Positions 25,733 through 44,695 of a stretch of 64,000 bases of DNA are shown here, in pieces. Both the position numbers and the translations under genes were made by a program. The stretch is from Deltaproteobacteria bacterium. GTDB lineage: Bacteria; Desulfobacterota; Deferrisomatia; Deferrisomatales; BM512. The stretch covers positions 11,997 through 75,996 of the forward strand of contig PKTT01000039.1 of the NCBI GenBank assembly GCA_002869015.1, given 5' to 3'. Each line of letters starts with the position of its first letter. The stretch's first letter is position 1. The notes beneath the pieces were generated by a model that worked only from the letters and a program-made list of their open reading frames with translations, was not told where the DNA came from and did not search any database.

Positions 25733-26191
25733 ATGTTGAAAATTGGCGGCAAAGCACCAGACTTTTCCCTTGAGAGCGACAGCGGCGAGACCATTAGCCT
25801 CTCCTCAATCGCCGGTAAGAGAGCTGTAATTTTTTTCTACCCGAAGGACAACACCTCGGGGTGAACCGCAGAAGCCCTGGAGTTCCAGGAACGACTTGAT
25901 AAGTTCGCGGAAATCGGCACCAACATCATAGGCGTCTCCAAAGACAGCTTAAAAAGCCATGCGCGCTTTAGAGAGAAGTATGGCTTTACCTTCCCCCTCT
26001 TGTCCGACGAAGGGCTGGGGATGCTAAAAAGCTACGGCGCTTGGGGGGAGAAAAAGTCATACGGCAAGGTCACCGAGGGTACTATACGCACCACTGTTGT
26101 AGTCGACGCCGATGGCGCAGTAGAGCGTATATATAACAAGGTCAAGGCCAAGGGGCATGCGCAGCAGGTCTTGGAGGATTTAGCGGGCTAA
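25733..26191 (+). CDS. bcp: Selenocysteine-containing peroxiredoxin BCP/PrxQ (UGA=Sec at 25862-25864), 152 aa
   Basis: ATG 25733 (SD AAGGAG): MLKIGGKAPDFSL...IFFYPKDNTSG-U-TAEALEF...GVSKDS..SH..F..KY...LLSD...WGEKKSYGK; in frame with track ORF 26000..26191. Confidence 0.92.
25862..25890 (+). promoter_or_regulatory. Bacterial SECIS-like hairpin of bcp
   Basis: UGA-ACCGCAGAAGC-CCUGG-AGUU-CCAGG: loop 16 nt after UGA, G at second loop position. Confidence 0.7.
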
Positions 26192-27226
26192 TATCGCTAC
26201 ACCCTGTTTGTAGCCAAGTCCCCCGTTGCCGTGGATGAGACCGTAGGGAAGTGATTTTTCCAGCATCTCCCGGTAGACGGCGATTGCTGCCCTTAGCGCG
26301 GGGCAGTTCCATGGTGCCCGCGCAAGGTTCATCCCACCCGTTATTGTGATGGGCTGCCTCTCAAGGTATGGAATCACCTCGTCGGCCGATGGGACCGCCC
26401 CTGAAGCCAGGAGGAAGGCCAAGGGGACCACCGGGTAGCAGATGTAAAGCTCGATCGCGCAGAATCCATTTTTCATAAGGGCCTTGATTGATAGACCGGC
26501 CGCACGTTCGCACCGCCTTATCGCCTCCGACAGGTGGGTAAAGGCGCTTATCTCCTCTGCGTTATCAGGGCCGTCGCCTGAAGCTTCTCCCAGCCCTACA
26601 CCCTCGACCTCAACAAGCTCCTCAAGGCCCAGGGCGGCGGCGCCTCTCCGTGTGGTTAGGAGTATCTGCCCGCTGTAGTCTATGATTGGGTTGGCGCAGT
26701 CCACGCCTCTAAAGAGCGGAGTAACGGGCTCATACCACCTGATGCCGGGAAGCTTTACGGGGCCTCTTGTCCTGCCCTCATATGTACGCAGGTAGTTATC
26801 AAAGAGCGCCTCCGCGCACTCCTTGAACCATTCATGTGAGAGCCCTCGCCTCCGCAGAAACCCCTCGGCGACCAACTGATAACCCTCAGGGATAGTTACG
26901 CCGTCGTAAATATCCATGAGCTTATGTCGCTCATCCCTTGAGTAGCCGCTCTTCAGGGGCTCCTCTCCACGGATTACGACTGCGTCGAGGGCGCCGGAGG
27001 ATATCCTCTGCACACCTTCGTAGATTGCCTCAATGGGGGAATTCCCTGAACGGAAATGCCCCTCAGGCAGCTCAGCCTCCCATGGCACCGATAGCGGCAC
27101 TATCGTGAAGAGCTCACAGGAGAGCCCCGCCTCCCTGGCTTTTGAAAGGAGGTCTGAGAGCCCCTGGGGTTGATCCGCCGGGGCGTCTATAATTTCCTCA
27201 GCGTAGGCGAGGTATACTCTTTCCAG
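26180..27226 (-). CDS. Thiolase-fold-like hypothetical protein; start uncertain (CTG 27226 favoured)
   Basis: C-terminal ELYICYP...TITGGMNLARAPWN...GLIHGNGG resembles thiolase/SCP-x C-domain; frame is open upstream of GTG 27100; AGGAGG 5 nt before CTG. Confidence 0.6.
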   Translation of the reverse strand: MERVYLAYAEEIIDAPADQPQGLSDLLSKAREAGLSCELFTIVPLSVPWEAELPEGHFRSGNSPIEAIYEGVQRISSGALDAVVIRGEEPLKSGYSRDERHKLMDIYDGVTIPEGYQLVAEGFLRRRGLSHEWFKECAEALFDNYLRTYEGRTRGPVKLPGIRWYEPVTPLFRGVDCANPIIDYSGQILLTTRRGAAALGLEELVEVEGVGLGEASGDGPDNAEEISAFTHLSEAIRRCERAAGLSIKALMKNGFCAIELYICYPVVPLAFLLASGAVPSADEVIPYLERQPITITGGMNLARAPWNCPALRAAIAVYREMLEKSLPYGLIHGNGGLGYKQGVAILAR

Positions 27227-27392: not shown

Positions 27393-28619
27393 GTGTTGAC
27401 AAAAAAAGCTGAACTTCTGGCCCCCGCCGGGAATTTCGAGAAACTTGAAATAGCCATACACTACGGAGCTGATGCCCTATACCTTTCCGGGCAGGAATTC
27501 TCGCTTCGCAATCTCTCGGGAAACTTTACCCCCGAGGAGCTAAAGCGCGGAATCGACCTCGCCCACGAGGCCGGGGTTAAGGTATACGTCGCCATCAACG
27601 CTTTTTTAAGGAACGCCGAACTTGACCTGCTGAGAGAGGAGGTAGCGCGCACCCGGGAGATGTCGCCCGATGCCTTTATAGTGGCCGACCCCGGAGCCCT
27701 ACAAATAGTGCGCGAGACCGCCCCCCAGGTCCCTATTCACCTATCGACTCAAGCAAACACCACCAACGCCGAGGCGGCGCGTTTCTGGCGCTCAGCGGGG
27801 GTTAGCCGGATTAACACCGCCCGGGAACTCTCCCTTCGGGAGATCTCTGAAATAGCAGCAGGGGTCGACATCGAGATAGAAGCCTTCGTCCACGGGGCCA
27901 TGTGCATATCATACTCCGGCAGATGCCTCATATCTGCGGCGTTGACGGGCCGGGACTCCAACCGTGGCGAGTGCACCCAGCCCTGCCGCTGGCGATACAG
28001 GCTTGAGGAGGAGACCCGCCCCGGCAAATATCTCCCGGTAATGGAGGACGGGCGGGGCACATATATAATGAACTCAAGAGACCTATGCATGGTCGGGCAC
28101 ATCCCGGCGCTCGTCGAAGCGGGGATATCATCATTTAAGGTCGAAGGGCGGATGAAGGGCATCGGCTACCTTGCCCCCGTAATCAAATGCTACCGCGAGG
28201 CTATTGACGCATATTACGAAGACCCTTCTGCCTTCACCGTCAAGGATGAGTGGCTGGAGGAGCTCTCCCGCGTTAACAGCTGGGGATACTCGACTGGTTT
28301 TTACTTCGGCGACCCGACGGAGATAGAACCAAATTTCGCAAATGAGCGTCCAACAACTGTCCACCGTTTAGCGGCTAAGGTTCTTAGTGGCGGGAATTCG
28401 CCAAAGGTAGATGTGAGAAACAAGGTCATTGCGGGTTCGGAAATTGAAATAATCGGGAAACGCGGAGAGGCAACAAAAGCAAAGGTGGAAAAAATAAGGG
28501 ACAAGTGGGGTGGCGAACTAAAAGAGGCGAACCCCGGCAAGCAGGTCACCTTTGAGTTGGGCGTCAATTGCGAGGTAAACGACCTCTTAAGGATAGGCGA
28601 AGATTACACGCACAGCTAA
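27393..28619 (+). CDS. Peptidase U32 family Fe-S protein (TrhP/YegQ-like tRNA hydroxylation)
   Basis: ELLAPAG, IHLSTQAN, HGAMCISYSGRC...NRGECTQPCRW, FKVEGRMK. Confidence 0.92.
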   Translation: MLTKKAELLAPAGNFEKLEIAIHYGADALYLSGQEFSLRNLSGNFTPEELKRGIDLAHEAGVKVYVAINAFLRNAELDLLREEVARTREMSPDAFIVADPGALQIVRETAPQVPIHLSTQANTTNAEAARFWRSAGVSRINTARELSLREISEIAAGVDIEIEAFVHGAMCISYSGRCLISAALTGRDSNRGECTQPCRWRYRLEEETRPGKYLPVMEDGRGTYIMNSRDLCMVGHIPALVEAGISSFKVEGRMKGIGYLAPVIKCYREAIDAYYEDPSAFTVKDEWLEELSRVNSWGYSTGFYFGDPTEIEPNFANERPTTVHRLAAKVLSGGNSPKVDVRNKVIAGSEIEIIGKRGEATKAKVEKIRDKWGGELKEANPGKQVTFELGVNCEVNDLLRIGEDYTHS

Positions 28620-30550: not shown

Positions 30551-31906
30551 TTATTTAGCGAGTGTTCCCCTCCTTAGTCTAGCTGTGTACTCAAAGGTTT
30601 TCTTTTCTCCTGGAGCCATGTTTAGGGTGTACTGGATAGTGTCGGCGTCCACTTTTTCATATTTTCCATAGTCACCCGCAGAGGCTACATCCCAGAAGTT
30701 CCACCCAAGATTCCTGCGAACCTCCACTGTGGACCTCTGCCCACGCAGATTCTCCACTTCGACCTTGTAGCTTAGGACATCCATATGGCCTTCGATGTAC
30801 TTCCTACCCGTCTGTTTATAGGTATTCCACTCGTACCCGTCCTTGGCGGAGCTCATCTCGGTAACCTTTACCCTGACGTCGCGGGTTACGCCCAAATTCA
30901 GGTTAACTTCGCCCTCCTTTGGGATGTACTTGGTCTCCCTCGCGCCGACAAATGTGAGCGCTCCATCATCTCCGCTCTCTCGAAACACCATCACAGCACC
31001 GCCGGGGATTGGCTCTCCGCCTAGTTTGTGTGCGGTGTCGTTGGCAAAGGAGATGAAGCGTATCACGCCCTCGCCATAACGCTCCGGCTCATATCGGTAG
31101 AGGCTCTCCACAGGTACGCTTTCAGCTGAGAAGGACGTAAGGCGTTTGCCCCAACCGTCATTGATCTCCTCGGTACCCTCAATGGTGTAGAGAAAATATT
31201 CACTGAGCCCCTCTTTGACAATCTCCTTGGGAGCCGCCCTGCCCATCATCATCTTTGCTACGGCACGGGGCGCGGCAACTTCATCGTTCTCCATCTCGTA
31301 TTGAATTTGAGGCATGGGGCGGCTTCCGATTGGCCGTCCATAGGGAGCGTCGCCCCTACGCGCAAGCTCCGCCACGCGGTCAAGAAGGTTTATCTTGCCC
31401 ACGATAAGGCGCGTCTCGGCGTTCGGGTAGTCCTCTCCGCTGCTGTTATTCACGAGGACGTAACCCTCAAGCTCCATGCTGGCTTCATCCTGGGAGAGGG
31501 TCGCCATGTAAAAGGCGCGCCAGCTGATGCCGCTTGTGAAATAGCTTATCTCCACGGGAACCGGCCCTGCGGCGCTGGCGGCTACATTCCAGACTCCTAC
31601 TCCCCCCACCCTCGCTGGATAGAGGAGGTCATTTACCAATATATCCCTGTCAAGCGCGCGGGGCAGAAGCTCCAGAGACGTTGGGTCAATGAGGGTCCCT
31701 GCCCAGCTGAACTGGAGTCTGTTCTCGCCTTCTCGCATGGTGAGCTTTCTCATATCTCTCGCCAGAGTGAGGTCGGCGGAGTTATAGATGGTTAGCTGGA
31801 CACGCTCCTGCTCTGGGAGGGTTACGAGGTCAACCTTTGCCAACGCAGCGGTGGGGAGGAGCAGAGAGATGACGAGGGCGACCTTGATTATGCTCTTTGT
31901 TTTCAT
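30551..31906 (-). CDS. Exported DUF4139-like protein
   Basis: Signal peptide, LTIYNSADLTLARD.R, SYFTSGISW.A.Y, NSSGEDY. Confidence 0.75.
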   Translation of the reverse strand: MKTKSIIKVALVISLLLPTAALAKVDLVTLPEQERVQLTIYNSADLTLARDMRKLTMREGENRLQFSWAGTLIDPTSLELLPRALDRDILVNDLLYPARVGGVGVWNVAASAAGPVPVEISYFTSGISWRAFYMATLSQDEASMELEGYVLVNNSSGEDYPNAETRLIVGKINLLDRVAELARRGDAPYGRPIGSRPMPQIQYEMENDEVAAPRAVAKMMMGRAAPKEIVKEGLSEYFLYTIEGTEEINDGWGKRLTSFSAESVPVESLYRYEPERYGEGVIRFISFANDTAHKLGGEPIPGGAVMVFRESGDDGALTFVGARETKYIPKEGEVNLNLGVTRDVRVKVTEMSSAKDGYEWNTYKQTGRKYIEGHMDVLSYKVEVENLRGQRSTVEVRRNLGWNFWDVASAGDYGKYEKVDADTIQYTLNMAPGEKKTFEYTARLRRGTLAK

Positions 31907-31916
31907 CGTCTCTCTC

Positions 31917-33047
31917 CTATCGGTTCCATATATCGCGGGTCAGGTTGCTATAAGCCAGCTCCCGCTTCTCACCGGGACCGAGGGCTACATATAATACAAG
32001 CTCGCTCGAACTTTTTCTCTCCCACTTGACGTTCGCCTCAGTAACCTCCCAATCTCCGCTGGGGTGCTCGACAATCTCCAGCGCAACCGGGGTGTCCTTG
32101 AAGTTCTCCACTCTAAAGGTAAAACGCTCAACCCTGTCACGCAGCACCGGGTCTTTGCGGCTGGGGCGATGGTTTAGCTCCTCATAGCCGATGCGTTTTT
32201 TTGTTACTTTGACATCGCGGCTAAAGCCTATCTTAACCCTCATCTTCGCCCCCGGCGGCGTGAAGTCAACGTTATCCTCTCCGAGGAAAATTGTCGCATC
32301 GTAGCCATCATCCTGGAAGATGCGCATCTTCCCCTCCCATAGGCTTCCCTGCCCCAGACCGGCGTCCGGTGTATTTATGAACTCGTAATAGACGGGGATC
32401 GAGACGTCGGACTCCTCCCGCTCCGGCTCCCACGGGAGATTATTTGAGTCCCAGAGGAGGGTTTTGGCCATTGGCACATCATTGGCACGAAAGAGCACCG
32501 CACGGCGGGTTTCGCCGCTAATTGAGGGGGTAGTCATGAGCGCGCCGCCATCCAGCGAGATCAGCGCCCCATCGAAATCCTCCCCGGAGAAGTTACGGAG
32601 CACCCCGAGCCCTGTTATGTCTAGCGTCGTCTCGGCCTTGTCAGCAACTGCCCTGTAGGCCACTAGACGGTCGATGTCGCGGAGAAGATAGCTAATCCTT
32701 ACCCTCTCCTCCAAGGGCGCTGCGGCGTTTATCCTCCAGATGAGGGCCGCCTCACCAGGCGGGTAGGAGACAGAGAGCAGGGTAACCGCTTCAGGATGGG
32801 AGAGCACCTTAAACCTTATGGAGTCGGGGTTTACGCTAACCCCACGCCAGGAAAAATCAACCAGATTCTCCCCGGCTTGAAGGGTCAGCACCCGCTCCTC
32901 CTCTATGAGGGTGGCGTCGGGGTTATCGAGGCGAATGGTAACTGATTCACGCTCGGGCAAAGCGGTTAGCTTGGTACGGGCCGATGCGCCGGAGGTTAAC
33001 GCCAGCACCATGAGGGCGGCTAAAAAGGATGGCAAAAGCTTCTTCAT
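31917..33047 (-). CDS. Exported DUF4139-like protein (paralogue of downstream gene)
   Basis: Signal peptide, LIEEER.LTLQAGEN.V.FSW.G..I/NP.S, NFSGEDF; similar to 30551..31906. Confidence 0.72.
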   Translation of the reverse strand: MKKLLPSFLAALMVLALTSGASARTKLTALPERESVTIRLDNPDATLIEEERVLTLQAGENLVDFSWRGVSVNPDSIRFKVLSHPEAVTLLSVSYPPGEAALIWRINAAAPLEERVRISYLLRDIDRLVAYRAVADKAETTLDITGLGVLRNFSGEDFDGALISLDGGALMTTPSISGETRRAVLFRANDVPMAKTLLWDSNNLPWEPEREESDVSIPVYYEFINTPDAGLGQGSLWEGKMRIFQDDGYDATIFLGEDNVDFTPPGAKMRVKIGFSRDVKVTKKRIGYEELNHRPSRKDPVLRDRVERFTFRVENFKDTPVALEIVEHPSGDWEVTEANVKWERKSSSELVLYVALGPGEKRELAYSNLTRDIWNR

Positions 33048-33359: not shown

Positions 33360-33376
33360 CAGGCACACCTCTTGCT
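33360..33376 (+). promoter_or_regulatory. sigma54 promoter of the AAA/FmdE operon
   Basis: CAGGCACACCTCTTGCT: GG(33362-3)-N10-GC(33374-5), matches (T)GGCAC-N5-TTGC, ~55 nt before ATG 33430. Confidence 0.7.
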
Positions 33377-33429: not shown

Positions 33430-34311
33430 ATGCACCGTAAGCTAGATAAGATTTTCTACGAGGTAAAAAAACCAACCCTTACCTGGGATGATATAGGCGG
33501 CTTTGCCGAGGTGAAGCAGCTGGTAAAGGAGATGGTCTCCCTGCCACTGATGAAGCCTGAGCTGATGAAAAAGGTGGGCCTTCAGCGCCCCGCCGGGGTC
33601 ATGCTCTGGGGGCCGCTTGGTGTCGGAATAACGATGCTCGCGGAGGCCGCCGCAACCGAGGCGGGTGTCTCCTTTGTCTACGTTTCCGGCCAGGAGATGC
33701 TAGGAAAGCCGGAGCAGGTTAAGGAGGCTTTCCACGACGCCGTGCATGAAGCCCCCTGTGTACTCTTCATCTCCGATACTGAGTGGCTATGCCCACGCGC
33801 CGGCTGCTCCTACGAGTGGGGGCCGGGAAACCTCCGCGGAATCCCGCCGACCTTCGCCGACAAGGAACTCTCGGAGCTCTTTATCCGCGAGATTGACAAG
33901 ATTCAGGAGAATGAAAACGTTATGCTCGTAGGCTCCTGCTACCGCATCGACACCGTGGATCAGGCGATAATCAAGGAAAAACGACGCTTCAACCGCAAGA
34001 TTTTCGTTCACCCCCCCCGCGCAATCGATCGAGAGGGGATGATTAAGATATACCTCGACAAGATGCCCTCGGTGGACCCGCGTGTGACCGCTGAGGAGCT
34101 CTCTCACAAGACAGAGGGCTATGTGGGATGGGACGCCGAATCGCTCTGCAAACGAGCGGCGCTTGAGGCGGTTATGGCGGACCGGGACGTGGTAACTCTG
34201 GAAGATTTCGAGAAGGCGCTGACCCAGGTTGAGCCATGGCTGACACCTGACATGACCGAGGTCTACCTGGAGATTGACAAGAATGACTGCCCCCACCATT
34301 ACGCTTTCTAA
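33430..34311 (+). CDS. Single-domain Cdc48/PAN-like AAA protein with degenerate Walker motifs
   Basis: TWDDIGG..EVK..VKEMV.LPL..PE, GVMLWGPLGVGIT, PCVLFISDTE, RRFNRKIFV.PP, TEGYVG.D..LC..AA. Confidence 0.85.
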   Translation: MHRKLDKIFYEVKKPTLTWDDIGGFAEVKQLVKEMVSLPLMKPELMKKVGLQRPAGVMLWGPLGVGITMLAEAAATEAGVSFVYVSGQEMLGKPEQVKEAFHDAVHEAPCVLFISDTEWLCPRAGCSYEWGPGNLRGIPPTFADKELSELFIREIDKIQENENVMLVGSCYRIDTVDQAIIKEKRRFNRKIFVHPPRAIDREGMIKIYLDKMPSVDPRVTAEELSHKTEGYVGWDAESLCKRAALEAVMADRDVVTLEDFEKALTQVEPWLTPDMTEVYLEIDKNDCPHHYAF

Positions 34312-34741
34312 AGAGGAGCGCAGGACGTTCTTCGACGCCCTAAAGATGCTCCACGGGCACCGCTGCCCCATGTCTATCCTTGGGGCACGCCTTGGGCTGG
34401 CGGCGCGCGCCCACGTCGGACGGCATGGCGAGAGCGGCGACGTTACCGCCCTCTACCACCACCAGACCTGCGCTATAGATGGCATCCAGCTGGCCCTGGG
34501 CACCACCGGGGGCAATAAAAATATCGAGGCGCGCCCCGAGGGTGAGCACCGCCTCACGGCGACCAACAAGACCAAGCGTATGTACATAACGGTTAGGCTC
34601 TCCGAAGAGGCCCTGAGGCGCGGCAAGGAGTACGCTGAGCTTAGGAGCGCTGGCGGCGATCCTGTGAAGATGGAGGAGATACTCCTAGGCCTTGAGGAAG
34701 CTCCGGAGGAGGAGCTTGTCGAGGTGTTGGAGCGCATCTGA
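34283..34741 (+). CDS. FmdE family protein
   Basis: HGHRCPMSILGARLG, TCAIDGIQ...T.G..N; overlaps upstream stop (TTG 34274 alternative start). Confidence 0.85.
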   Translation: MTAPTITLSKEERRTFFDALKMLHGHRCPMSILGARLGLAARAHVGRHGESGDVTALYHHQTCAIDGIQLALGTTGGNKNIEARPEGEHRLTATNKTKRMYITVRLSEEALRRGKEYAELRSAGGDPVKMEEILLGLEEAPEEELVEVLERI

Positions 34742-35691
34742 TGGAGATCGCAAAGGAGTTTTTACATATAGTCCTCACTGAAGCGGGGAAGATGTGGTGG
34801 TTCACCCTCATCGGCGTCACCGTGGCGGCGCTCATAAAAACTTACCAGCTGGATAAAAACGTAAGAAAATACGTAGGCCGCTTTGGCGTCCTCTCAATCC
34901 TGGTTGCTACCGCTATTGGGGCATTCTCCCCGCTTTGCTCATGCGGAATCCTGCCAATAATAATTCCAATGGCGCTCTCCGGCGTGCCACTACCACCGCT
35001 TATGGCGCTCCTGACGACCTCACCGGTGATGGATCCCAGCTCATTTTTCCTTACCATGGGAGGTGTAGGCGAGGAGCTCGCCTGGTGGAAGTTCGGTGGT
35101 GCGATTTTTCTGGGGCTCTCCTCTGGGTTCGTTACTCTTTTTCTTGTGCGCACAGGTTATTTTTCTGGAAACATTGTGCGAATGAAGCCGGTACATACTG
35201 ATGAGGGCGAGTTGGCCTCCGCCTATGAGATTGGGTGCGCCAACAACCTCATTTTAAAGACGATGACAGTCAAGCCTCGTGAATCGAAGCTCTTATTTTT
35301 TATAGATCGATTCCTCGATGTAGGGCTTTTCGTAGGAATGTGGGTTGCGATAGCCATAGTTTTGGAGGCGGTGATCCAGCTCTTCGTTCCCATTAACTGG
35401 GTCACTTGGCTTGTCGGCAAGGAGGGGATGACCTCCGTTGTTGCGGCGGCGCTGGTCGCGCTTCCGCTGCCTGCGCACCAGGTCCCGGTGGTGCCTATTC
35501 TCGCCGGGCTACAAGCAAAGGGGATATCCGTTGGCGCGGATATTGCTTTTTTAATGGCCGGACCGGTAACTTCAATTCCGGCGATTGGAGCACTTTCGGC
35601 GATCTTCTTGCCGCGAGTGGTGGTATCATTCATAATTACAGGGCTTGCGGGTTCCATCATCCTCGGCGCATTGAGAATGGGCTTTGGATGA
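34741..35691 (+). CDS. DUF318/ArsP-type permease
   Basis: SPLCSCGILP...MALLTTSPVMDP, AFLMAGPVTSIP; multiple TM helices; TGATG coupling. Confidence 0.85.
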   Translation: MEIAKEFLHIVLTEAGKMWWFTLIGVTVAALIKTYQLDKNVRKYVGRFGVLSILVATAIGAFSPLCSCGILPIIIPMALSGVPLPPLMALLTTSPVMDPSSFFLTMGGVGEELAWWKFGGAIFLGLSSGFVTLFLVRTGYFSGNIVRMKPVHTDEGELASAYEIGCANNLILKTMTVKPRESKLLFFIDRFLDVGLFVGMWVAIAIVLEAVIQLFVPINWVTWLVGKEGMTSVVAAALVALPLPAHQVPVVPILAGLQAKGISVGADIAFLMAGPVTSIPAIGALSAIFLPRVVVSFIITGLAGSIILGALRMGFG

Positions 35692-35759: not shown

Positions 35760-37223
35760 ATGAAACGTTTAACCATCTCCCTAATAGCGGCCGCGCTAGC
35801 GGCAGGCCCCGCCTTCGCGGGCGCTCCACTCTTCACCGATATAACCTCCAAAGCCGGGGTTGGTGATGCGGGCAACGGCAAGGGCGTGGCGTTCGCCGAC
35901 ATCGACAACGATGGCGACTGGGACCTTTACGTGTCAAACAAAGGCGGCGCCAACAAGCTCCTTCGCAACGACGGCAAAGGCGTCTTCACTGACATAACCG
36001 CTGAAGCGGGTGAGGGAGTAGGTGACGCTGGCTTTGTCATGGGCTCCGTTTTCTTCGACTTTGACAACGACGGCTGGACCGACCTCTACCTCCCCAAAGG
36101 CGGCAGGTATGAGATTGAAGCAAACCGCCTCCTCAAAAACGTTGGCGGCACCTTTGTCGACGTAACGGATAAGGCGGGCGTAGGCTCCAAGGAGTTCACC
36201 TACGCAGCGGCTTCAGCCGATTTCGACAATGACGGCTTCCTCGACCTCTACCTCGCAAATTACGGAGTCGGCGCGAAGAACATTCTTTACAGAAACAACG
36301 GCGACGGCACCTTCACCGACGTGACGGATAAAGCGGGCGTAGGCGACCGCTCATGGTCATGGATGGCCGTATGGGCTGATGTAAACGGCGACAACAAGCA
36401 GGACCTTTACGTTGTCAATGGCCGCTACCCGGCCGGTGAACCAAACACCCTCTATATCAATAACGGCGACGGCACCTTTAGCGACGCCTCCCGCACCTCC
36501 GGCATCGCCGACAACGGCTGGGGTCTTGGCGCAGCCTTTGCCGACACCGATAAGGACGGAGACCTTGACCTCTTTATCTCCAACTATGTCGGCCCCAACG
36601 GCTACTTCATAAATGACGGCACCGGCGTCTTCACCCCCGCTGGTGAGAGCGCAGGCCTTGCCGATACAGGCTGGGGCAAAGGCCCCACCTTCGGCGACTT
36701 CGATAACGACGGCGACCTGGACCTCTACGAGGGCGACTGCAAGGTAGCCAATCAGCTATACAGAAACAACGGCGACGGTACCTATACCGACATAGCTCAA
36801 GATAGCCCCTCGACCCGTTGCGCAGCCGTGCGCACCAAGGGCACAGCTTTTGTAGACATCGACGGTGATGGCGACCTCGACCTATACGCCGTCAACTGGG
36901 CCGCCGAGAACAAGCTCTTCTTAAACTCGACAAACAATGGCAACTGGCTGAAGGTTCGCCTCACCGGCACCCTCTCCAACGCAATGGGGGTCGGCTCGCG
37001 CGTATGGGTACGCTCCGGCTCCAAGGTTGAGGGCGTTGCCGAGATGGCGACCTCTTCAGGGTTCTGCGCCCAGCCTCCCCAGGAGCTACATTTCGGCGTA
37101 GATGCATCTAAGACTTACACCGTTGAAGTGCGTTTCCCCAGCGGACAGGTTAAGGTAATTGAGAACGTTACACCCGGACAGGTCCTCACAGTTGAAGAGC
37201 CCGGCAAAGTGGCCCTCCGCTAA
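35760..37223 (+). CDS. Secreted FG-GAP/VCBS-repeat protein with ASPIC/UnbV C-terminal domain (CRTAC1 family)
   Basis: Seven D.DNDG..DLY repeats, N.GDGTFTDVT.KAGV, C-terminal GFCAQ...LHFG....VEVRFPSG. Confidence 0.9.
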   Translation: MKRLTISLIAAALAAGPAFAGAPLFTDITSKAGVGDAGNGKGVAFADIDNDGDWDLYVSNKGGANKLLRNDGKGVFTDITAEAGEGVGDAGFVMGSVFFDFDNDGWTDLYLPKGGRYEIEANRLLKNVGGTFVDVTDKAGVGSKEFTYAAASADFDNDGFLDLYLANYGVGAKNILYRNNGDGTFTDVTDKAGVGDRSWSWMAVWADVNGDNKQDLYVVNGRYPAGEPNTLYINNGDGTFSDASRTSGIADNGWGLGAAFADTDKDGDLDLFISNYVGPNGYFINDGTGVFTPAGESAGLADTGWGKGPTFGDFDNDGDLDLYEGDCKVANQLYRNNGDGTYTDIAQDSPSTRCAAVRTKGTAFVDIDGDGDLDLYAVNWAAENKLFLNSTNNGNWLKVRLTGTLSNAMGVGSRVWVRSGSKVEGVAEMATSSGFCAQPPQELHFGVDASKTYTVEVRFPSGQVKVIENVTPGQVLTVEEPGKVALR

Positions 37224-38310
37224 TAGACGGCATCAACCGACAAAAGGGAGGCTGCCAGGCAGCCTCTTTTTTTGTATAACCATCCTCCTCTTTTTAGGTG
37301 GATGCGCCTCGGTTGGGCCTACAGATGATTTTAGCGAGTTGGTAACCATTGAGGGGCTGGTCTCCCTTGAGGGCAAGGGGTATAAGGGGGCAAATGTTTC
37401 TTTATATCCTTTAGCTGAATTTACAAAGCCAGGTGAACCTGCTCATTTAACCCAAACAGAGAGCAAAGAGAGTGGCGTTTTTTTGCTCAAGGCCCCTGCG
37501 GGGGATTACCTGATAACCGCCCGGAGCCACTCCGGCGACCTCTTTGCGTTTTTCGGCAGGAATCCTTTAAGGGCGGGTGCCCACCAGCGTGGACTCACCC
37601 TGCCGCTCGTTCCGGCACACCCCCCCATATTTTTGAAAAATGAAACCGACACATCGATTATAACGGGGCGGGTCCTCCATCAAGGCAACCCCGTAGCCGG
37701 AGCTAAGGTTGCGTTATATCTATCTGCAGAGGCAGGCTTTAGGGGCCAGCCTTACGATTTCTCTGCGCCCACAGATAAAGATGGCAAATTCTCCATGATA
37801 ATTGACCCTGGCAGTTACTTCGCCACTGTAAAGATGCGCGCTTCCGGTAGGGATATCGGTCCGCTTAAACCCGGCGACCTCTTCGGCATCGCTCCGGGGC
37901 TACGCATGACAATTGAACGAGGGGTGACTGTAAATGCCGATATTGAGTTACTGGCGCTGCCCTCCCGAGAAAAACAGGCGCGCTTTCTGACAAAATTCGC
38001 TACGGTTGAGGGAACTGTAACGGATGCTACCGGGGCGCCCCAGGCTGGCATGCGCGCGGCGCTTTACGAAAACAAGAACATGCTTGGAGAGCCCCTACTC
38101 CTATCTGAACCGACAGGGCCCGATGGCAAATTCAACATATCCACCAGCCTAACCGGAAAGCTTTACCTCGGCGTGAGAGAGTTCATAGGCGGCCCTCCCT
38201 CCTCTGGGGAGCGTGTCGGCTTTGCCGATGGGCCTGACAATGGCCGCTTTAACCTGACGCCAGGCGTAAATGTCGAAGGGGTTAAAATAATAGCGAGGCT
38301 AACTCCATGA
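37192..38310 (+). CDS. Lipoprotein with three carboxypeptidase-regulatory-like (CnaB/SdrD-type) domains; start uncertain
   Basis: LGGC lipobox; repeated I.G.V...G.P.AGA.V.LY...PT..DGKF units; in-frame TTG at 37159 or 37192. Confidence 0.7.
   Translation: MKSPAKWPSANRRHQPTKGRLPGSLFFCITILLFLGGCASVGPTDDFSELVTIEGLVSLEGKGYKGANVSLYPLAEFTKPGEPAHLTQTESKESGVFLLKAPAGDYLITARSHSGDLFAFFGRNPLRAGAHQRGLTLPLVPAHPPIFLKNETDTSIITGRVLHQGNPVAGAKVALYLSAEAGFRGQPYDFSAPTDKDGKFSMIIDPGSYFATVKMRASGRDIGPLKPGDLFGIAPGLRMTIERGVTVNADIELLALPSREKQARFLTKFATVEGTVTDATGAPQAGMRAALYENKNMLGEPLLLSEPTGPDGKFNISTSLTGKLYLGVREFIGGPPSSGERVGFADGPDNGRFNLTPGVNVEGVKIIARLTP
37242..37273 (+). terminator. Terminator-like hairpin after the CRTAC1 gene, inside the next gene's signal-peptide region
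   Basis: GAGGCTGC-CAG-GCAGCCTC followed by T7. Confidence 0.65.
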
Positions 38311-40139
38311 GGACCTTAGCCGCATTCGCTCTTTTACTTGCAAGCATCCTCTCCTTATGTGGATGCTCTTCAGCACCTCTTAAATCGGATGCGGACTCGA
38401 AAAACATAACGTGGTCAGGGATTGTCGAAGTAAAGGAATCCATAACCTTCCCTAGAGGTACAACTTTAAAGATAAACCCCGGCACAACGGTAAAATTTGC
38501 TACTACGGACATAGACGGCGACGGCCTTGGAGACATATCCCTAACCCTTGAGGAGGGTACTCTCCAGATAGATGGCACACTAGCTTCGCCAGTCACCTTT
38601 ACAACACTTGACAGAGCCCCAAGCCCCGGCGACTGGGGAGAGCTCAGGCTGGACTTTTCACGCCTTGCGGTTAAATATCTGATCCTTGAGGGTGCGACGA
38701 GGGGACTTCATCTACACTTCACATCGGGAGTTGTCGAGGACTCATTGTTCCGCGACAACCTGGATGCAACGAGGATAGGCGAATCGAAGGTAAATTTCGC
38801 CAGGTGCCTTTTTAGCCAGAACTCCGGCAAAGGCTATAATTCGCGCACCTCGGAGAACACGCTTAAGGGTTCGTGGTTCCGCAATAATAGGCGTGGGCTC
38901 TTTCTCTTTGAGGGGGACAAGGGCTCAGACCTCTCCGGGAACCTCTTTAGCGGCAATGATGTCCCACTGCGCCTTGGCGATTTTTACGCGGGAAGGGTCA
39001 GGACAACCGGCAACCAGTGGGAGAAGGACCCCATTCCCACAAGCACTGTCAGCCCTGAAGCGACGTTATCCATAGAACCAGGCGTGGTATTTGAAGCAGG
39101 GCCTCTGGGTTGGCCCCTCCTTAAAGAGGGGTGGAGAGTCGATACCGGGGGTTTCGTCGATGCACTCGCCGGAGGCGAGCTGGGGCTATATTTTCCCTCT
39201 TGGGACGGCACCATAAACAGGGTTGGCCTCTTCGACGGTACAAAGATTGCGGGAACATCAATTGGCGACATTAGCGACTCAGCTCCAGCTCTTGGAAAAT
39301 TAGAGGGTCGCTATTATCTTGCTTTACAGGGGTGGGACCGCTCCATACGCCTTCTGGACGCAATTACCCTTGAGGAGCTTGACTCATTTACCGAGGCCCC
39401 CTCCCCTGCGGATGACCACCGACAGTCCTCCCCTCTATTTATTGCCGGGGACTTAACCGTAGCTACATGGGCTGGCCGGGTATATTCATTTAAAGTGCTG
39501 GATGACAAACTTGTCGAGAATTGGAAGGTCGAAGCATCGGCACCGGTCAGGGCCGACCTGACCTTAATCGAGTCAGCTGATGGAAAAACAATCCTCGTCC
39601 CGCTGGAGTCCGGCACGTTATTGGCATTAAATTATGTCACGGGGATTGAGCGCTGGCGCTTCAATGCCTCTGCCCCACTGATATCAGGGGCTGCGGTGGA
39701 TAGTTCACGGGTTTTTATTGCGGACAAAAATGGCTCGCTATACTCCCTCTCTCTTGAGGGGAAACTCCTTTGGAGCAGAGAGATTCCCGGGGGTGCCTGG
39801 TATGCGCCGCCGCTGATCAATGAGGGCACCATATACCAGGGCAACGATTCGGGCAGCTATTCCGCCTATGACGCGGTCACAGGAGAAGAGCGCTGGCAGG
39901 CTATCCTTGATGGGGGAATTAGGGGTAGCGGCGCTGCAATAAAGAATACCATAGCGGTCGCAACCGCTGGCGGCAGCCTATACCTCATCGACGCAGAGAG
40001 CGGGTTGGTGCGTGACAGGATGAAGTTGGGTGACGCTGTACTCTCCTCTCCCTTGATTATTGGCGAGAGACTTTATGTAGGAACAAGGCCCGGGGCGGTA
40101 CACTCTTTCACGGTTGAAAACGTCAAAAGTGCTTATTAA
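38307..40139 (+). CDS. Lipoprotein: right-handed beta-helix plus PQQ-type (BamB-like) beta-propeller
   Basis: LCGC lipobox, TWSG...TLKINPGTTVKF, DIDGDG, F..N repeats; C-terminal G.L.AL...TG.ERW repeats; ATGA overlap. Confidence 0.78.
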   Translation: MRTLAAFALLLASILSLCGCSSAPLKSDADSKNITWSGIVEVKESITFPRGTTLKINPGTTVKFATTDIDGDGLGDISLTLEEGTLQIDGTLASPVTFTTLDRAPSPGDWGELRLDFSRLAVKYLILEGATRGLHLHFTSGVVEDSLFRDNLDATRIGESKVNFARCLFSQNSGKGYNSRTSENTLKGSWFRNNRRGLFLFEGDKGSDLSGNLFSGNDVPLRLGDFYAGRVRTTGNQWEKDPIPTSTVSPEATLSIEPGVVFEAGPLGWPLLKEGWRVDTGGFVDALAGGELGLYFPSWDGTINRVGLFDGTKIAGTSIGDISDSAPALGKLEGRYYLALQGWDRSIRLLDAITLEELDSFTEAPSPADDHRQSSPLFIAGDLTVATWAGRVYSFKVLDDKLVENWKVEASAPVRADLTLIESADGKTILVPLESGTLLALNYVTGIERWRFNASAPLISGAAVDSSRVFIADKNGSLYSLSLEGKLLWSREIPGGAWYAPPLINEGTIYQGNDSGSYSAYDAVTGEERWQAILDGGIRGSGAAIKNTIAVATAGGSLYLIDAESGLVRDRMKLGDAVLSSPLIIGERLYVGTRPGAVHSFTVENVKSAY

Positions 40140-40169: not shown

Positions 40170-40730
40170 GTGAAGAAGAATATTTTTGCCGTTATTGTGG
40201 CGCTACTTATACCGATGGCTGCTCTAAGCTGTGTCGGGAAATCACTTGTGGTTGGGACAGATTCCTCTCCTAAGAGCAAAGTTGTGGCGCAGGTATTAGC
40301 TATCTTGATAAATGAACGGACGGGAACAACCGTACAGATCATAGACCACGAAACCCCAGAGGCGCTTTTTAAGGAGATGCGTGATGGTGACGTGGATATA
40401 GCCCTTCAGTATGCGGGTAGCGCCCTAAAGAGGGATGGCAAGAATGTTGGCAGCGATGCGGCGGCTACATACGAACTGGCTAAGCAGCATTACCAGTCCG
40501 CTTGGAACCTGGCTTGGCTACCCCCACTCGGTTTCACCGAGGAGGGAGATGCAGATTCTCTTGCTGCGCCAGTTGCGCAAAAACATGCTTTAAAAAAATT
40601 CCCCGCACTCCCCAGGCTAATCGCTAAAACCGAGGGAACCCTCACCGGCGCAACAGTAAAAGAGCTTGCAGGAGCAGACTCCATACCTCGTGCCGTACGG
40701 GAATTTCTCAAGAGCAACAAGTTAATTTAA
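40170..40730 (+). CDS. Short OpuAC-like (glycine betaine SBP-like) exported protein
   Basis: Signal + CVGK; LVVGT...VVAQVLAILI.ERTG...GDVDI..QYAG...NLAWLPPLGF; only 186 aa. Confidence 0.65.
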   Translation: MKKNIFAVIVALLIPMAALSCVGKSLVVGTDSSPKSKVVAQVLAILINERTGTTVQIIDHETPEALFKEMRDGDVDIALQYAGSALKRDGKNVGSDAAATYELAKQHYQSAWNLAWLPPLGFTEEGDADSLAAPVAQKHALKKFPALPRLIAKTEGTLTGATVKELAGADSIPRAVREFLKSNKLI

Positions 40731-40906: not shown

Positions 40907-41845
40907 ATGAAAATGATGCGAATATTTGACGACAACAGCCAATCCATAGGAAATACCCCCCTTGTTAGGGTCAACAACCTGACTAAAGGACTTAAAGCGA
41001 CCGTGCTGGCAAAGGTCGAAGCTAGAAACCCTGCCTTTTCAGTCAAATGCAGGGTTGGTAGAAATCTGATCCTCGACGCTGAAAAAAAGGGCGTAATTAA
41101 ACCGGGCATGACGATAGTCGAGCCAACAAGCGGCAATACGGGGATAGCTCTTGCCTTTGTTTGCGCGGCGCGTGGGTATAAGCTCGCGCTCACCATGCCG
41201 GAGACAATGAGCGTCGAGCGGCAAAAGCTGCTAAAAGCCTTTGGCGCGGAGCTTATTTTGACTCCTGGCTCAAAGGGCATGGGCGGCGCAATCGCAACCG
41301 CCACGGATATGGCGGCAGAGGACCCCTCCAGATTCTATATGCCTGACCAATTCTCAAACCCCGCAAATCCTGAAATTCACTTTATGACTACCGGACCTGA
41401 GATATTCTCCGATACGGATGGCAAGGTCGATTATTTCGTCTCCGGGGTTGGCACCGGCGGCACAATCACCGGCGTATCCCGCTACCTGAAGGGGGAGAAA
41501 GGTCTTGCCGTGACCTCAATAGCTGTGGAGCCTGAGGCATCTCCTGTGCTGAGCGGCGGCTCTCCGGGCCCCCACAAAATTCAGGGTATAGGCGCCGGCT
41601 TCAAGCCCGCGACACTCGACCTCTCTCAAGTTGACAGGGTATCTACGGTAGCCGATGAGGCGGCCATGGAGACAGCGCGCAGGCTCGCCCGCGAAGAGGG
41701 CATCATCTGCGGCATATCTAGCGGCGCGGCCATGGCGGCAGCGCTGGAGCTTGCAGCAAAAGAGGAGGCTGCGGGCAAGACAATCGTCACGATACTTCCC
41801 GATTCAGGCGAGCGCTACCTCTCCACACAGCTCTTTGAAGTCTGA
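40907..41845 (+). CDS. cysK: Cysteine synthase A
   Basis: [51 protein letters not shown]. Confidence 0.95.
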
Positions 41846-41914: not shown

Positions 41915-44695
41915 TCACCTTGCTCTCTTCTTAAAATGGTAGTCGAGAAGGTTGTCGAAGTGGCCCAGAAGCTCAAAGGAGGGCCTCTTGACCGCTACTT
42001 CGCAAAGCTCAATATACCTCTTCACGATAGTCGCGAAGAGCGGAATTGAGGTTCCAATCCGCTTTGACATCGGCAGACGCATGACCCCAAGGGCCACCTC
42101 AAGATGCTCTATACCCCCTGCCAACTCACCTGATATTGCGTATAGCTCAGCTACCTGCCCGTGCGCGGCGGCAAGCTCAAGCGAGTACCCATCTGGGTTG
42201 GCGTCAACGAGTTTTTTAAACTCTGAAATAGCTACTTTGACAGATGCAATCCCCTTCTCAACCAACCCCGCCTCCCCCATAATCCTGCCAAGGTTGGCCA
42301 AAGAAGCTGCATGTCGCTCCAAAAATGCCGCCGGGCGAACGCTAGCAAGCTGCTCATGAATCTCAGAGGAGCGCGAAGCAGCAGAAAGAGCCTTCTCCGG
42401 GGCGAGGTTAAGATCAGTCAGCGCCGCCAGATTGTTGAGGGCAGTGGCGTAGGGCACGGCAAACCTAGTGCGTCCCTCCACAAGTAGGGACTTATAGAGC
42501 GACAGCGAACGATTTGCCACCTTTTCACCCTGCTCACACCTGCCGCTTCTAAGAAGCTCAGCCGCCAGGTTGTTGAGCGCAAGGGCAAGGTCATCCTTCC
42601 ACACATCGGCATTTCGCTGTGAGAGGCGTTCATATATCTCCACCGCTTCCACCGCTGCGGGCACCGCTTTGGACGCCCTGCCAAGCGCCCCATATATCGG
42701 TGTTACGTTGGTTAACGCCGCTGCAAGCTCCGCGTCAAATGCATCCGGATTCTTCTCAGAGAGGCCGCGCAAAAAGCCAATGGCGCGCTCAGCTGGAGCT
42801 AAAGCCTCATCCCACTCTCGCAGTCTGGCGTGGGATATGGCGAGATTATTAAGGGCCTGTGCAAAACCGGGCACATATACCCTGGGGTTGCTGCGCGCCA
42901 GCTTCTCCCACTGCTTCACCCCCTCCTCGGCAGCCTCAAGGGCGCGGCGATAGCTCCCCGCGTGATGTTGATATGCTGCAAGATTTGTCCAAGCGCCAGC
43001 TAGCTCCGCCTCCTCCTGACCACCCTCTTCCTTAGCCAGATCAGTACGGATTTGCACCACCCTTAGCCCCTCTTTAGCGGCATTCACGGCTTTGCCCTGA
43101 ATAGCTTCAAAGGCTGCAAGGTTGTTTAGGCAGTTGGCGAGCCTTCTATAGTTGGAGGGGTCATCCTCGACCAGCTTGCTGTATGCTTCAACCGCGCGCC
43201 GCGCAGTCTCAAGGGCGCCGCTGACGTTTCCAAGCTCAAAGTTGGCTACCGCGAGGCGATTCATCGTATCCGCACGTACTGAAGCATAAGCTGGTGTCTG
43301 AGGTAATTTAAGAACGAGGGTCTCGTGGAGGGCTATCCCAAAGGCGGCGAGGTTTGAGTTTCTAAGTGAGGTCTGGCGGGAAACCCATATAAGCTCGTCG
43401 ACGGGCCGCTCACTTAGCACCATGTCTAGCCAATGCTTTACCAGCTCAAAACCCTTTATGCCGGAGATGTCTCCAGTTGTCCTTATGAGATTGAGCCACA
43501 CCAGCTCCGGGTCCACCCCTATTGCGAGCTCTATGCACTCATCCATCTGGGCTTTGTATTCGGAGAGCACCAGCACTCCGAAAGCGCCATTTATGAGGTC
43601 GTGGATAATCGGAATGTAAAGCTGTCGTCCATCTTCGACGCCGCCACGCCCCGCCGTGGCCTTCAGCCCCATCAAGGTGCCGTCAATAGCGGTCTCGGAG
43701 GCGCCAAGGCTCAGCGCATCTGCCCGCAGGAGATTTATAAAGCCGTCATCTTTGCTGTCACGGGCTCCGCAAAAGGCAAGGTAGGCAACGGCACGCTCAA
43801 CCAAGATGGGGTCGGCCCCCTTTGGGCATAGGCCCCTAACCGCAGCGCGCTCCCTTGAAACTGCCCACTGAAGGAGGTCACCCTGGTCCCAATCGGTGAT
43901 ATTTACCGCAGAGCCCGTCTCACAGGCCCTTATCGCAGCAAGTTGAAGGTATACGGGGTTTCGGTCGGTATTTAAACGAAGGGCCTGCAAGGAATCCCGG
44001 CTTAAGGTGGGAAGCCGTGGGGCCTCCTTCTGGCAGAGGTCAGACCACGCGTCAAGGGTCTCCTGTAGGATTTCGACCATCGTATTATCGGGGTCTTCCC
44101 TGCCGGGAAAGCCAAGCCTTAACGGCATCTCCATCGACGACTGAACGGCTTCCCACTCTGCGCCGCTGAGGCGTTGCAGCATCTCCCCGAACCACCCGGC
44201 TTCAACTGCCGCCCTGCGCTCTATGAGGATTAGCCGCACCCGCTTGCCGCTATTTCGCCCCTCTTCCCTACCCCATTTGGCGAAGTGAACTATGAGGGTC
44301 TCAAGAACATCGGATTTTCGCGCCGCATTGTCGATTATCATCAAGGTGTTCTGAAGAGGTCTGAATGAGGCAAATTCGGGGGATTTAACCCAGGCGTCCA
44401 GGGCATCGCCGGGCACGAAACCTGCGAGCCATCCTTCTGAAGATGCTTTTGCCGCTGCCTCCTGGGTCAATCTGGTCTTGCCCACCCCGCCATTACCAAA
44501 GACAGTAAGCCATCTAAATGGCGCGCCGGAGTTACAGAAGCTGTCAATCCCCTCAAGCTCTGCGCCCCTACCTACAAGGGGGAGGAATGAGGCGGAGGGG
44601 TGCAGGAGGCTTCCCGGCCTCTCGGGGATTATAAGATGTGCGGTATTCGCAAGATATATAGGCGCGTCCATTAGCCCACCCGTATTTGAATTCAT
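41915..44695 (-). CDS. STAND-like P-loop NTPase with C-terminal TPR repeats
   Basis: PLVGR, GNGGVGKTRL (Walker A), LMIIDNA (Walker B), RLILIER; ~8 LA..LNNLA TPR units; start may be ATG 44671. Confidence 0.8.
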   Translation of the reverse strand: MNSNTGGLMDAPIYLANTAHLIIPERPGSLLHPSASFLPLVGRGAELEGIDSFCNSGAPFRWLTVFGNGGVGKTRLTQEAAAKASSEGWLAGFVPGDALDAWVKSPEFASFRPLQNTLMIIDNAARKSDVLETLIVHFAKWGREEGRNSGKRVRLILIERRAAVEAGWFGEMLQRLSGAEWEAVQSSMEMPLRLGFPGREDPDNTMVEILQETLDAWSDLCQKEAPRLPTLSRDSLQALRLNTDRNPVYLQLAAIRACETGSAVNITDWDQGDLLQWAVSRERAAVRGLCPKGADPILVERAVAYLAFCGARDSKDDGFINLLRADALSLGASETAIDGTLMGLKATAGRGGVEDGRQLYIPIIHDLINGAFGVLVLSEYKAQMDECIELAIGVDPELVWLNLIRTTGDISGIKGFELVKHWLDMVLSERPVDELIWVSRQTSLRNSNLAAFGIALHETLVLKLPQTPAYASVRADTMNRLAVANFELGNVSGALETARRAVEAYSKLVEDDPSNYRRLANCLNNLAAFEAIQGKAVNAAKEGLRVVQIRTDLAKEEGGQEEAELAGAWTNLAAYQHHAGSYRRALEAAEEGVKQWEKLARSNPRVYVPGFAQALNNLAISHARLREWDEALAPAERAIGFLRGLSEKNPDAFDAELAAALTNVTPIYGALGRASKAVPAAVEAVEIYERLSQRNADVWKDDLALALNNLAAELLRSGRCEQGEKVANRSLSLYKSLLVEGRTRFAVPYATALNNLAALTDLNLAPEKALSAASRSSEIHEQLASVRPAAFLERHAASLANLGRIMGEAGLVEKGIASVKVAISEFKKLVDANPDGYSLELAAAHGQVAELYAISGELAGGIEHLEVALGVMRLPMSKRIGTSIPLFATIVKRYIELCEVAVKRPSFELLGHFDNLLDYHFKKRAR

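Follow-up and report, generated by a model that had tools for sequence, protein, structure and literature searches.

A degenerate, stand-alone Cdc48/p97-D2-like AAA protein as a possible scaffold of a U32 protein pair in anaerobic bacteria

The window, by which we mean the whole stretch of 64,000 nucleotides that was analysed, contains a run of plus-strand genes, the first of which encodes a single-domain AAA protein. This gene is 382 nt from a divergent gene, and its position bears out the preliminary description, which had placed it at the head of an operon. The first genes of the operon overlap. The features considered here are the following.

33361..33376, plus strand: putative sigma-54-type promoter-like site (GG-N10-GC), 69 nt before the ATG
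33430..34311, plus strand: single-domain Cdc48/p97-D2-like pseudo-ATPase, 293 amino acid residues, uninterrupted
33610..33633, plus strand: altered Walker A motif GPLGVGIT, residues 61-68, with Lys→Ile67 (GPPGVGKT in VAT D2)
33760..33861, plus strand: altered Walker B motif S115-D116-x-E118-W119 and a family-specific insert at pore loop 2 (Y128, W130, N134, R136, PPTFA)
33931..33999, plus strand: second region of homology (SRH), sensor-1 Asn→Tyr171, with K182, R186 and NRK kept
34285..34308, plus strand: C-terminal tail D286-C-P-H-H-Y-A-F, a candidate metal site and ring latch
34283..34741, plus strand: FmdE-family protein (PF02663, E 2.5e-17) with an HGHRCP motif, overlapping the AAA tail; the start could be the TTG at 34274
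34741..35691, plus strand: ArsP_1/SaoE-like permease with a conserved SPLCSCG motif
35760..37223, plus strand: FG-GAP/ASPIC-UnbV beta-propeller protein, predicted from its N-terminus to be exported
37159..38310, plus strand: CarboxypepD_reg repeat protein
38307..40139, plus strand: beta-helix and PQQ-type beta-propeller protein
40170..40730, plus strand: short OpuAC-like solute-binding protein
40907..41845, plus strand: cysteine synthase CysK (TIGR01139, 454 bits, over the cut-off)

Sites of the form GG-N10-GC were found in 7 of 34 regions upstream of homologues, compared with 0.1 expected from shuffles, and a sigma-54-type response regulator, as read from sequence, occurs in related clusters. 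Across 37 loci (L004 and L040 being one contig), the neighbours of the AAA gene include FmdE (21), the permease (21), FG-GAP (15) and CysK (9). Other recurring neighbours, from tables in which some rows are blank owing to open reading frame picks that are sometimes off-frame in high-GC loci, are a pair of U32 proteins (U32a and U32b), a tetrapyrrole-methylase-like gene, DUF362 with a polyferredoxin, ResB-like proteins, a seleno-YedE, a TIGR01977 desulfurase, DUF3343 and the GeoRSP radical SAM gene. Most of these lie on other contigs in the window's genome, where the query used for DUF3343 returned none. No VWA-domain partner was seen in the loci scanned, Rfam gave no match in the window, and none of 88 pattern matches in viral contigs was a relative.

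Elsewhere in the window, an aldehyde ferredoxin oxidoreductase family gene is located at 4743-6488 (plus strand), and a 306-residue open reading frame at 26180-27100 (minus strand) shows weak matches to the C-terminal half of acetyl-CoA acetyltransferases and no Pfam match. A TrhP-like U32 protein, distinct from the U32a partner family, is encoded at 27393-28619 (plus strand); its nearness to the AAA locus looks coincidental. Two tandem, mutually similar DUF4139/MuiA-like genes (30551-33047, minus strand) are divergent from the operon, and a gene for a 926-residue protein with a weak AAA_16 NTPase match and TPR repeats (41915-44695, minus strand) is convergent with cysK.

The AAA protein matches the Pfam domains AAA (PF00004) and AAA_lid_3 (PF17862), and both Pfam and structural comparison identify a classic-clade AAA fold with a helical lid. 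Its scores against the CDC48 and PAN profiles are far under the cut-offs (159 bits versus 803 for TIGR01243), and the closest solved sequence relative is VAT D2. Alignment to VAT D2 substantiated several claims of the preliminary description: Walker B reads VLFISDTE instead of IVFLDEID, replacing D by S115 and E by D116, sensor-1 reads GSCYR instead of GATNR, pore loop 1 is deleted (also relative to p97), and the N-domain is missing. There is no tandem D1-D2 arrangement, and a search without a length limit revealed no longer high-identity form of the protein among the best 150 matches. ESM Atlas gave generic AAA clusters only.

The homologue search produced 366 matches, of which the best 120, with identities of 64-100% and nearly all 293-296 residues long, were examined. 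The named members among these 120 belong to Deferrisoma, Desulfuromonas, Geoalkalibacter, Geothermobacter and Nitrospirota; analysis of loci added Actinomycetota and Desantisbacteria as carriers. The catalytic changes are family-wide: within the same 120 of 366, Ile67 and S115-D116 are present in every sequence, and Tyr171 in 118, with Phe in the other 2. Residues T68, W119, R123, R172, R186, W234 and Y279 are likewise invariant in this set. The statement that every catalytic motif is changed thus holds for the Walker A lysine, Walker B and sensor-1; it is slightly overstated because Thr68 and R186, the second arginine of the SRH, remain. The first finger is Lys182 in 119 of these 120, with a one-residue insertion. 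The two extra Cys/His motifs noted earlier are both present here and fared differently in the family: DCPHHY is found in 119 of the best 120 of 366 homologues, and CPRAGC is not a family feature, with C121 in 47, C126 in 93 and both cysteines in only 39 of the 120, which rules it out as a metal site.

Conservation is concentrated where catalysis has been lost. Thirteen of the fourteen columns spanning Walker A (60-73) are at least 95% conserved, and the mean conservation of the P-loop is 0.97 versus 0.77 overall, so that no part of the protein is better conserved than the dead site. None of 127 bacterial homologues has a lysine at the Walker A position. Comparison with the closest relative (locus L001) gave a dN of 0.010 and a dS of 1.0, hence a dN/dS of about 0.01, indicative of purifying selection; other pairs with the window protein gave 0.06-0.18, with dS near saturation. 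Given identical substitutions in all 120 (the best 120 of 366) down to 64% identity and this dN/dS, we regard local decay of, or a sequencing error in, an ordinary Cdc48/PAN gene as refuted, with a probability next to nil. The opposite claim, that the gene encodes a selected pseudo-enzyme, is strongly supported by the same data. As a separate observation, the P-loop in three actinomycetotal loci (L013, L017 and L084) is GPLGTGIK, with a lysine one place past the canonical position; the L084 protein has a His-rich stretch at its start, and a small Cys-rich open reading frame and tungstate/Moco genes follow in some of the three.

With the Walker A lysine, both canonical acids of Walker B, the asparagine of sensor-1 and pore loop 1 all missing, the AAA protein is very unlikely to be a motor driven by ATP. 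In p97, Cdc48 and the D2 of Pex1/6, activity is abolished or crippled once the Walker A lysine and Walker B acids are lost (PMC5447069), and ATP hydrolysis by the AAA protein should by this analogy be very unlikely. Threading is also very unlikely because pore loop 1 is absent. The names "AAA family ATPase" and "transitional endoplasmic reticulum ATPase" given to members in databases are therefore probably wrong.

An AlphaFold2 model of the protein has a pLDDT of 94.7 and a pTM of 0.91, with residues 1-6 disordered. The best structural match is p97-ATPgammaS (7jy5; Z 28.2, rmsd 2.6, 268 aligned residues), and all top matches are p97, Cdc48, VAT, PAN, Vps4 or their close kin. The alignment runs from model residues 1..290 to chain residues 460..766 of 7jy5, and its last pair is His290/Arg766. 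Many other matches end at 288/764 or 289/765, and three at 289/766; the tail register is read from these alignment end points and is uncertain by one residue. Tyr279 corresponds to the tyrosine of the p97 KYEMF motif. The p97 tail is required for D2 oligomers; it lies in the cleft of the neighbouring subunit, with R766 touching that subunit's gamma-phosphate (PMC8861141, PMC5447069). The model thus puts His290 at about the p97 R766 position and, because of this alignment, the Cys/His tail probably docks in the former ATP cleft of the neighbouring subunit. The only conserved candidate metal ligands are C287, H289 and H290 of the tail together with His2. Selection has kept the subunit contacts, the remodelled cleft, the aromatic insert at pore loop 2 and the Cys/His tail.

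Other explanations of the tail were examined and rejected. HbYX is the proteasome-docking tail motif, and the tail tyrosine here is third from the end, which rules this function out. Selenocysteine read-through of the AAA gene is ruled out by its TAA stop codon. Nor can the overlap with FmdE explain why the tail is conserved, since the conservation persists where FmdE is absent.

The origin of the family was explored using 50%-identity representatives, and the archaeal gene context comes from four short contigs. A full-length relative with 38% identity, P0227, has an intact GPPGGGKT motif; its hosts, archaea of the Ca. Hydrothermarchaeales type, encode three single-domain paralogues, A, B and C. 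In paralogue A, 59 of 60 sequences carry GKT or GKS and all 60 have Walker B "NE", and the tail is C-x-H-C/R-Y; B is characterized by GPLGxGK[GA], "MDID" and DCxHKYNF; in C, Walker A is lost and the finger is a canonical RNGR. In a careful 39-row tree, whose shape is the same in a quick 109-row tree, the bacterial family and A, B and C form one clade apart from Cdc48 D1 and D2 (support 100/99), within which the bacterial family has B as its sister (100/99). Of 56 B sequences, 55 have Lys at position 290, and all 6 C sequences have Arg, which is what descent from the p97 R766 position would predict. Every one of 92 A, B and bacterial sequences has C287 and H289, and the C-x-H-x-Y-x-F tail occurs in all three archaeal paralogues, an alignment pattern suggesting that the tail predates the bacterial system. 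The graded series from archaeal A (GKT) through B (GKG) to the bacterial proteins (GIT) illustrates a motor fold that loses catalysis and keeps function.

These paralogues bear on one reading of the bacterial protein, namely that it is an inactive subunit of a mixed ring and supplies an arginine finger in trans to an active AAA partner. Such a ring is likely for the archaeal trio: genes for C, B, a methyltransferase, FmdE and A lie within 4.3 kb in locus L062, and 10 A or C matches pair with a B match on contigs of equal size. The retention of R186 and K182 would also fit a mixed ring in bacteria, but searches with P0227 found no active A-type partner in any of 24 bacterial genomes, the other classic AAA matches there being open frames of only FtsH size (533-784 residues). 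With the active partner absent, the mixed-ring reading for the bacterial protein is already largely refuted, and we consider it highly improbable.

Several details of the archaeal sequences and loci are recorded here as observations. Residue 2 is Cys in 10 of 14 A/C sequences with a C-x-H-R tail and in none of 51 with C-x-H-C (P0227, P0271-P0336), which may represent a ligand swap between N-terminus and tail, a pattern resting on one or two clades; bacterial members have His2. Archaeal A lies beside an Lrp-like regulator in L060 (1592-2293) and L061; L060 also has an MSMEG_0568-like radical SAM gene, and L061 a sulfonate-type ABC binding protein.

The immediate operon partners point to another role, that of a metal or chalcogen chaperone whose Cys/His tail would hand a soft metal or a sulfur or selenium species to FmdE and the Cys-lined ArsP permease for uptake or efflux. 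The frequency of FmdE and the permease among the 37 loci and the overlap of the FmdE frame with the AAA gene agree with it, as do an FmdE gene near the archaeal paralogues in L061 and L062 and the recurrence of YedE, the desulfurase, DUF3343 and CysK nearby. However, the FmdE query used found no match in nine carriers, namely all four from Actinomycetota and genomes G029, G068, G310, G063 and G405; FmdE is also absent from the Nitrospirota loci, and carriers without it conserve the tail all the same. We find this role unlikely.

The best genomic partner of the AAA gene is instead the U32 pair, the link to the adjacent FmdE being weaker. Using cut-offs of E ≤ 1e-60 for AAA and E ≤ 1e-45 for U32a, we found AAA in 19, U32a in 20 and both in 18 of 401 genomes of the window's phylum; these and the following counts depend on the chosen cut-offs and come from kin that are not independent and represent about seven lineages. 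The sole AAA carrier without U32a is a genome that is 81% complete, and U32b is present in 16 of the 18 other AAA carriers. Conversely, G167 (100% complete), G254 and G447 carry U32a but lack AAA. Of the 8 AAA carriers among 151 Nitrospirota genomes, 5 have an intact U32a and one more has it in pieces, and in an actinomycetotal class AAA was found in 4 of 5 genomes and U32a in the same 4. U32a, U32b and AAA genes are contiguous in seven loci (L006, L007, L013, L014, L017, L084 and L052), and one gene separates them in L053. In the window's genome and order, the AAA gene adjoins FmdE and the permease, and U32a and U32b are in other operons. In locus L134 (genome G401) the U32a matches are in three pieces, suggesting frameshifts or assembly errors.

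The U32 proteins have invariant cysteines, C181/C188/C201/C236 and C31/C191/C204/C208, that fit the UbiU and UbiV patterns CX6CXnCXnC and CXnCX12CX3C, and the two profiles match at 96.7%. In UbiU and UbiV such four-cysteine patterns bind 4Fe-4S clusters (PMC6747719). The similarity falls short of orthology to the ubiquinone UbiU/UbiV (66.7 bits versus a cut-off of 440), and U32b has no NCBIfam match at E 1e-8.

The radical SAM gene co-occurs with the AAA gene nearly as well: in the same 401 genomes it was found in 21, 16 of them among the 19 AAA carriers, and in Nitrospirota in 11, 7 of them among the 8 carriers. Because of this the link may be to a pathway rather than to the U32 pair as such. 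In the window's genome the radical SAM protein scores over the TIGR04303 cut-off (406.8 bits versus 400) and is encoded next to a PqqD-like gene, as in GeoRSP systems (TIGR04302-04304); homologues of TIGR04302 PqqD (60.9 versus 100) and TIGR04304 SPASM (59.8 versus 300) are present under the cut-offs, the latter on another contig. Envelope genes are common to this set and the classical GeoRSP cluster: beta-helix, CarboxypepD_reg, OpuAC-like, permease and YedE. In contrast to the classical system, the radical SAM protein is a lower-scoring variant (380-471 bits versus 575-654), the genes are split over several operons here, and the dead AAA protein, the U32 pair and a tetrapyrrole-methylase-like gene are added; AAA, U32a and U32b are all missing from six genomes with the classical radical SAM protein.

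The radical SAM protein resembles mycofactocin and PQQ maturases, which raises the possibility that the AAA protein is itself a substrate, a large leader whose DCPHHYxF tail would be modified by the U32 pair or by radical SAM/PqqD and perhaps released as a cofactor. A free C-terminus with near-invariant Cys, His and Tyr (best 120 of 366 homologues) would suit this role. Against it, the tail seems older than the bacterial system and is located where the p97 tail sits, classical GeoRSP genomes hold the radical SAM protein without the AAA protein, and the actinomycetotal carriers G403 and G404 are without a GeoRSP-grade radical SAM protein. We judge the substrate role improbable.

A further set of neighbours hints at a connection with pterin or metal cofactors. 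In the window's order moeA-mobB precede U32b, as moeA does in G063, and in Actinomycetota the AAA gene is followed by tungstate/Moco genes. A UbiV-like gene was observed right after moeA-mobB in L079 (6362-8884), L119, L123, L124, L126-L130, L132 and L135, and after moeA alone in L121. With this genomic setting, the AAA protein could be a repurposed ligand-binding protein or enzyme, in which the P-loop cleft would bind a phosphate or carboxylate intermediate (e.g. a nucleotide or a pterin adenylate) and carry or sense it without hydrolysis. The above-average conservation of the dead site and the invariance of D116, W119, R123 and W234 in the best 120 of 366 homologues speak for such a cleft, while the exchange of Lys for Ile removes the phosphate contact, and Trp234 stands where the G-A-D motif of the lid presumably has its small residue and may fill the pocket. 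On balance a ligand-binding role is doubtful.

We favour a reading in which the AAA protein is an ATP-independent, metal-binding ring that scaffolds the co-inherited, UbiU/UbiV-like U32 pair, and assign it a probability of roughly 45%; a scaffold or metallochaperone role, as proposed in the preliminary description, fits the evidence. The protein would still oligomerise, because the inter-subunit elements (SRH, D156, last helix and tail) are conserved. Like the tail of p97, the Cys/His tail would insert into the cleft of the adjacent subunit that formerly took the gamma-phosphate, and C287, H289 and H290 would bind metal there. The ring would then hold, stabilise or help load the U32 pair within an anaerobic cofactor-maturation pathway comprising the radical SAM protein, the PqqD-like protein, a methyltransferase and a sulfur/selenium supply, and serving exported redox proteins. 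As an accessory to the U32 pair, it would act much like UbiT toward UbiU-UbiV.

The known systems closest to this proposal differ from it in several respects. Cdc48/p97/VAT D2 (5vc7, 7jy5, 5c18), the closest PDB sequences, have the same fold over residues 1-290, including the lid, the last helix and the tail position; relative to them, the AAA protein is a single domain without N-domain or D1, has lost the ATPase motifs and pore loop 1, and has gained the pore loop 2 insert and the Cys/His tail. The degenerate D1 rings of Pex1/Pex6 are likewise non-hydrolysing classic AAA domains kept for structure, but they are fused to an active D2, whereas the AAA protein stands alone, with no active partner in the genomes searched. 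MoxR/NorQ/CoxD and BchD-type AAA+ proteins mature metalloenzymes, and some have inactive subunits; they need ATP and usually a VWA-domain partner. They belong to a different AAA+ clade, whereas all top matches of the AAA protein are in the classic p97/VAT/PAN clade and its motifs are degenerate. In human Pex1 D1, the Walker B Glu is replaced by Asp, the same change as in the AAA protein (PMC5447069). UbiU-UbiV-UbiT combines a U32 pair with a non-catalytic accessory protein in O2-independent hydroxylation (PMC6747719), and U32a and U32b share its UbiU and UbiV four-cysteine patterns; here the U32 proteins are a distant subfamily, and the accessory would be an AAA fold, not SCP2.

A literature search, with most subscription papers outside its reach, found no description of the AAA family and no DUF362/U32/PqqD/FmdE/YedE combination; PMC8235581 yielded nothing on the gene. 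Dead AAA domains are already known; a stand-alone one of this clade with such a tail and partners is new. Fully dead, stand-alone classic AAA proteins under strong selection are rare, and this gene is a marker of a coherent anaerobic pathway, as yet unannotated and spread over several phyla of bacteria that cycle metals and sulfur, and connects that pathway with an orphan pair of U32 proteins. A broader scenario, which we put forward only tentatively and rate as rather unlikely as a whole, is that anaerobic bacteria took over a subunit of the archaeal three-paralogue system and turned it into an ATP-free metalloprotein ring. The tail would fill the neighbour's gamma-phosphate site, and the ring would be the assembly platform for a so far undescribed cofactor pathway that needs no oxygen (U32 hydroxylase pair, radical SAM/PqqD, methyltransferase, sulfur/selenium relay and Moco-linked genes) that matures exported redox enzymes. 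Cultured carriers exist in Deferrisoma, Desulfuromonas, Geoalkalibacter and Geothermobacter, and these ideas are therefore directly testable.

A minor observation concerns genome G000, where a frame of at least 3758 codons (contig C1, 2-11276, minus strand) has 63 CxxCH and 11 CxxxxCH motifs and runs to the contig end; 31 frames in this genome have five or more CxxCH motifs.
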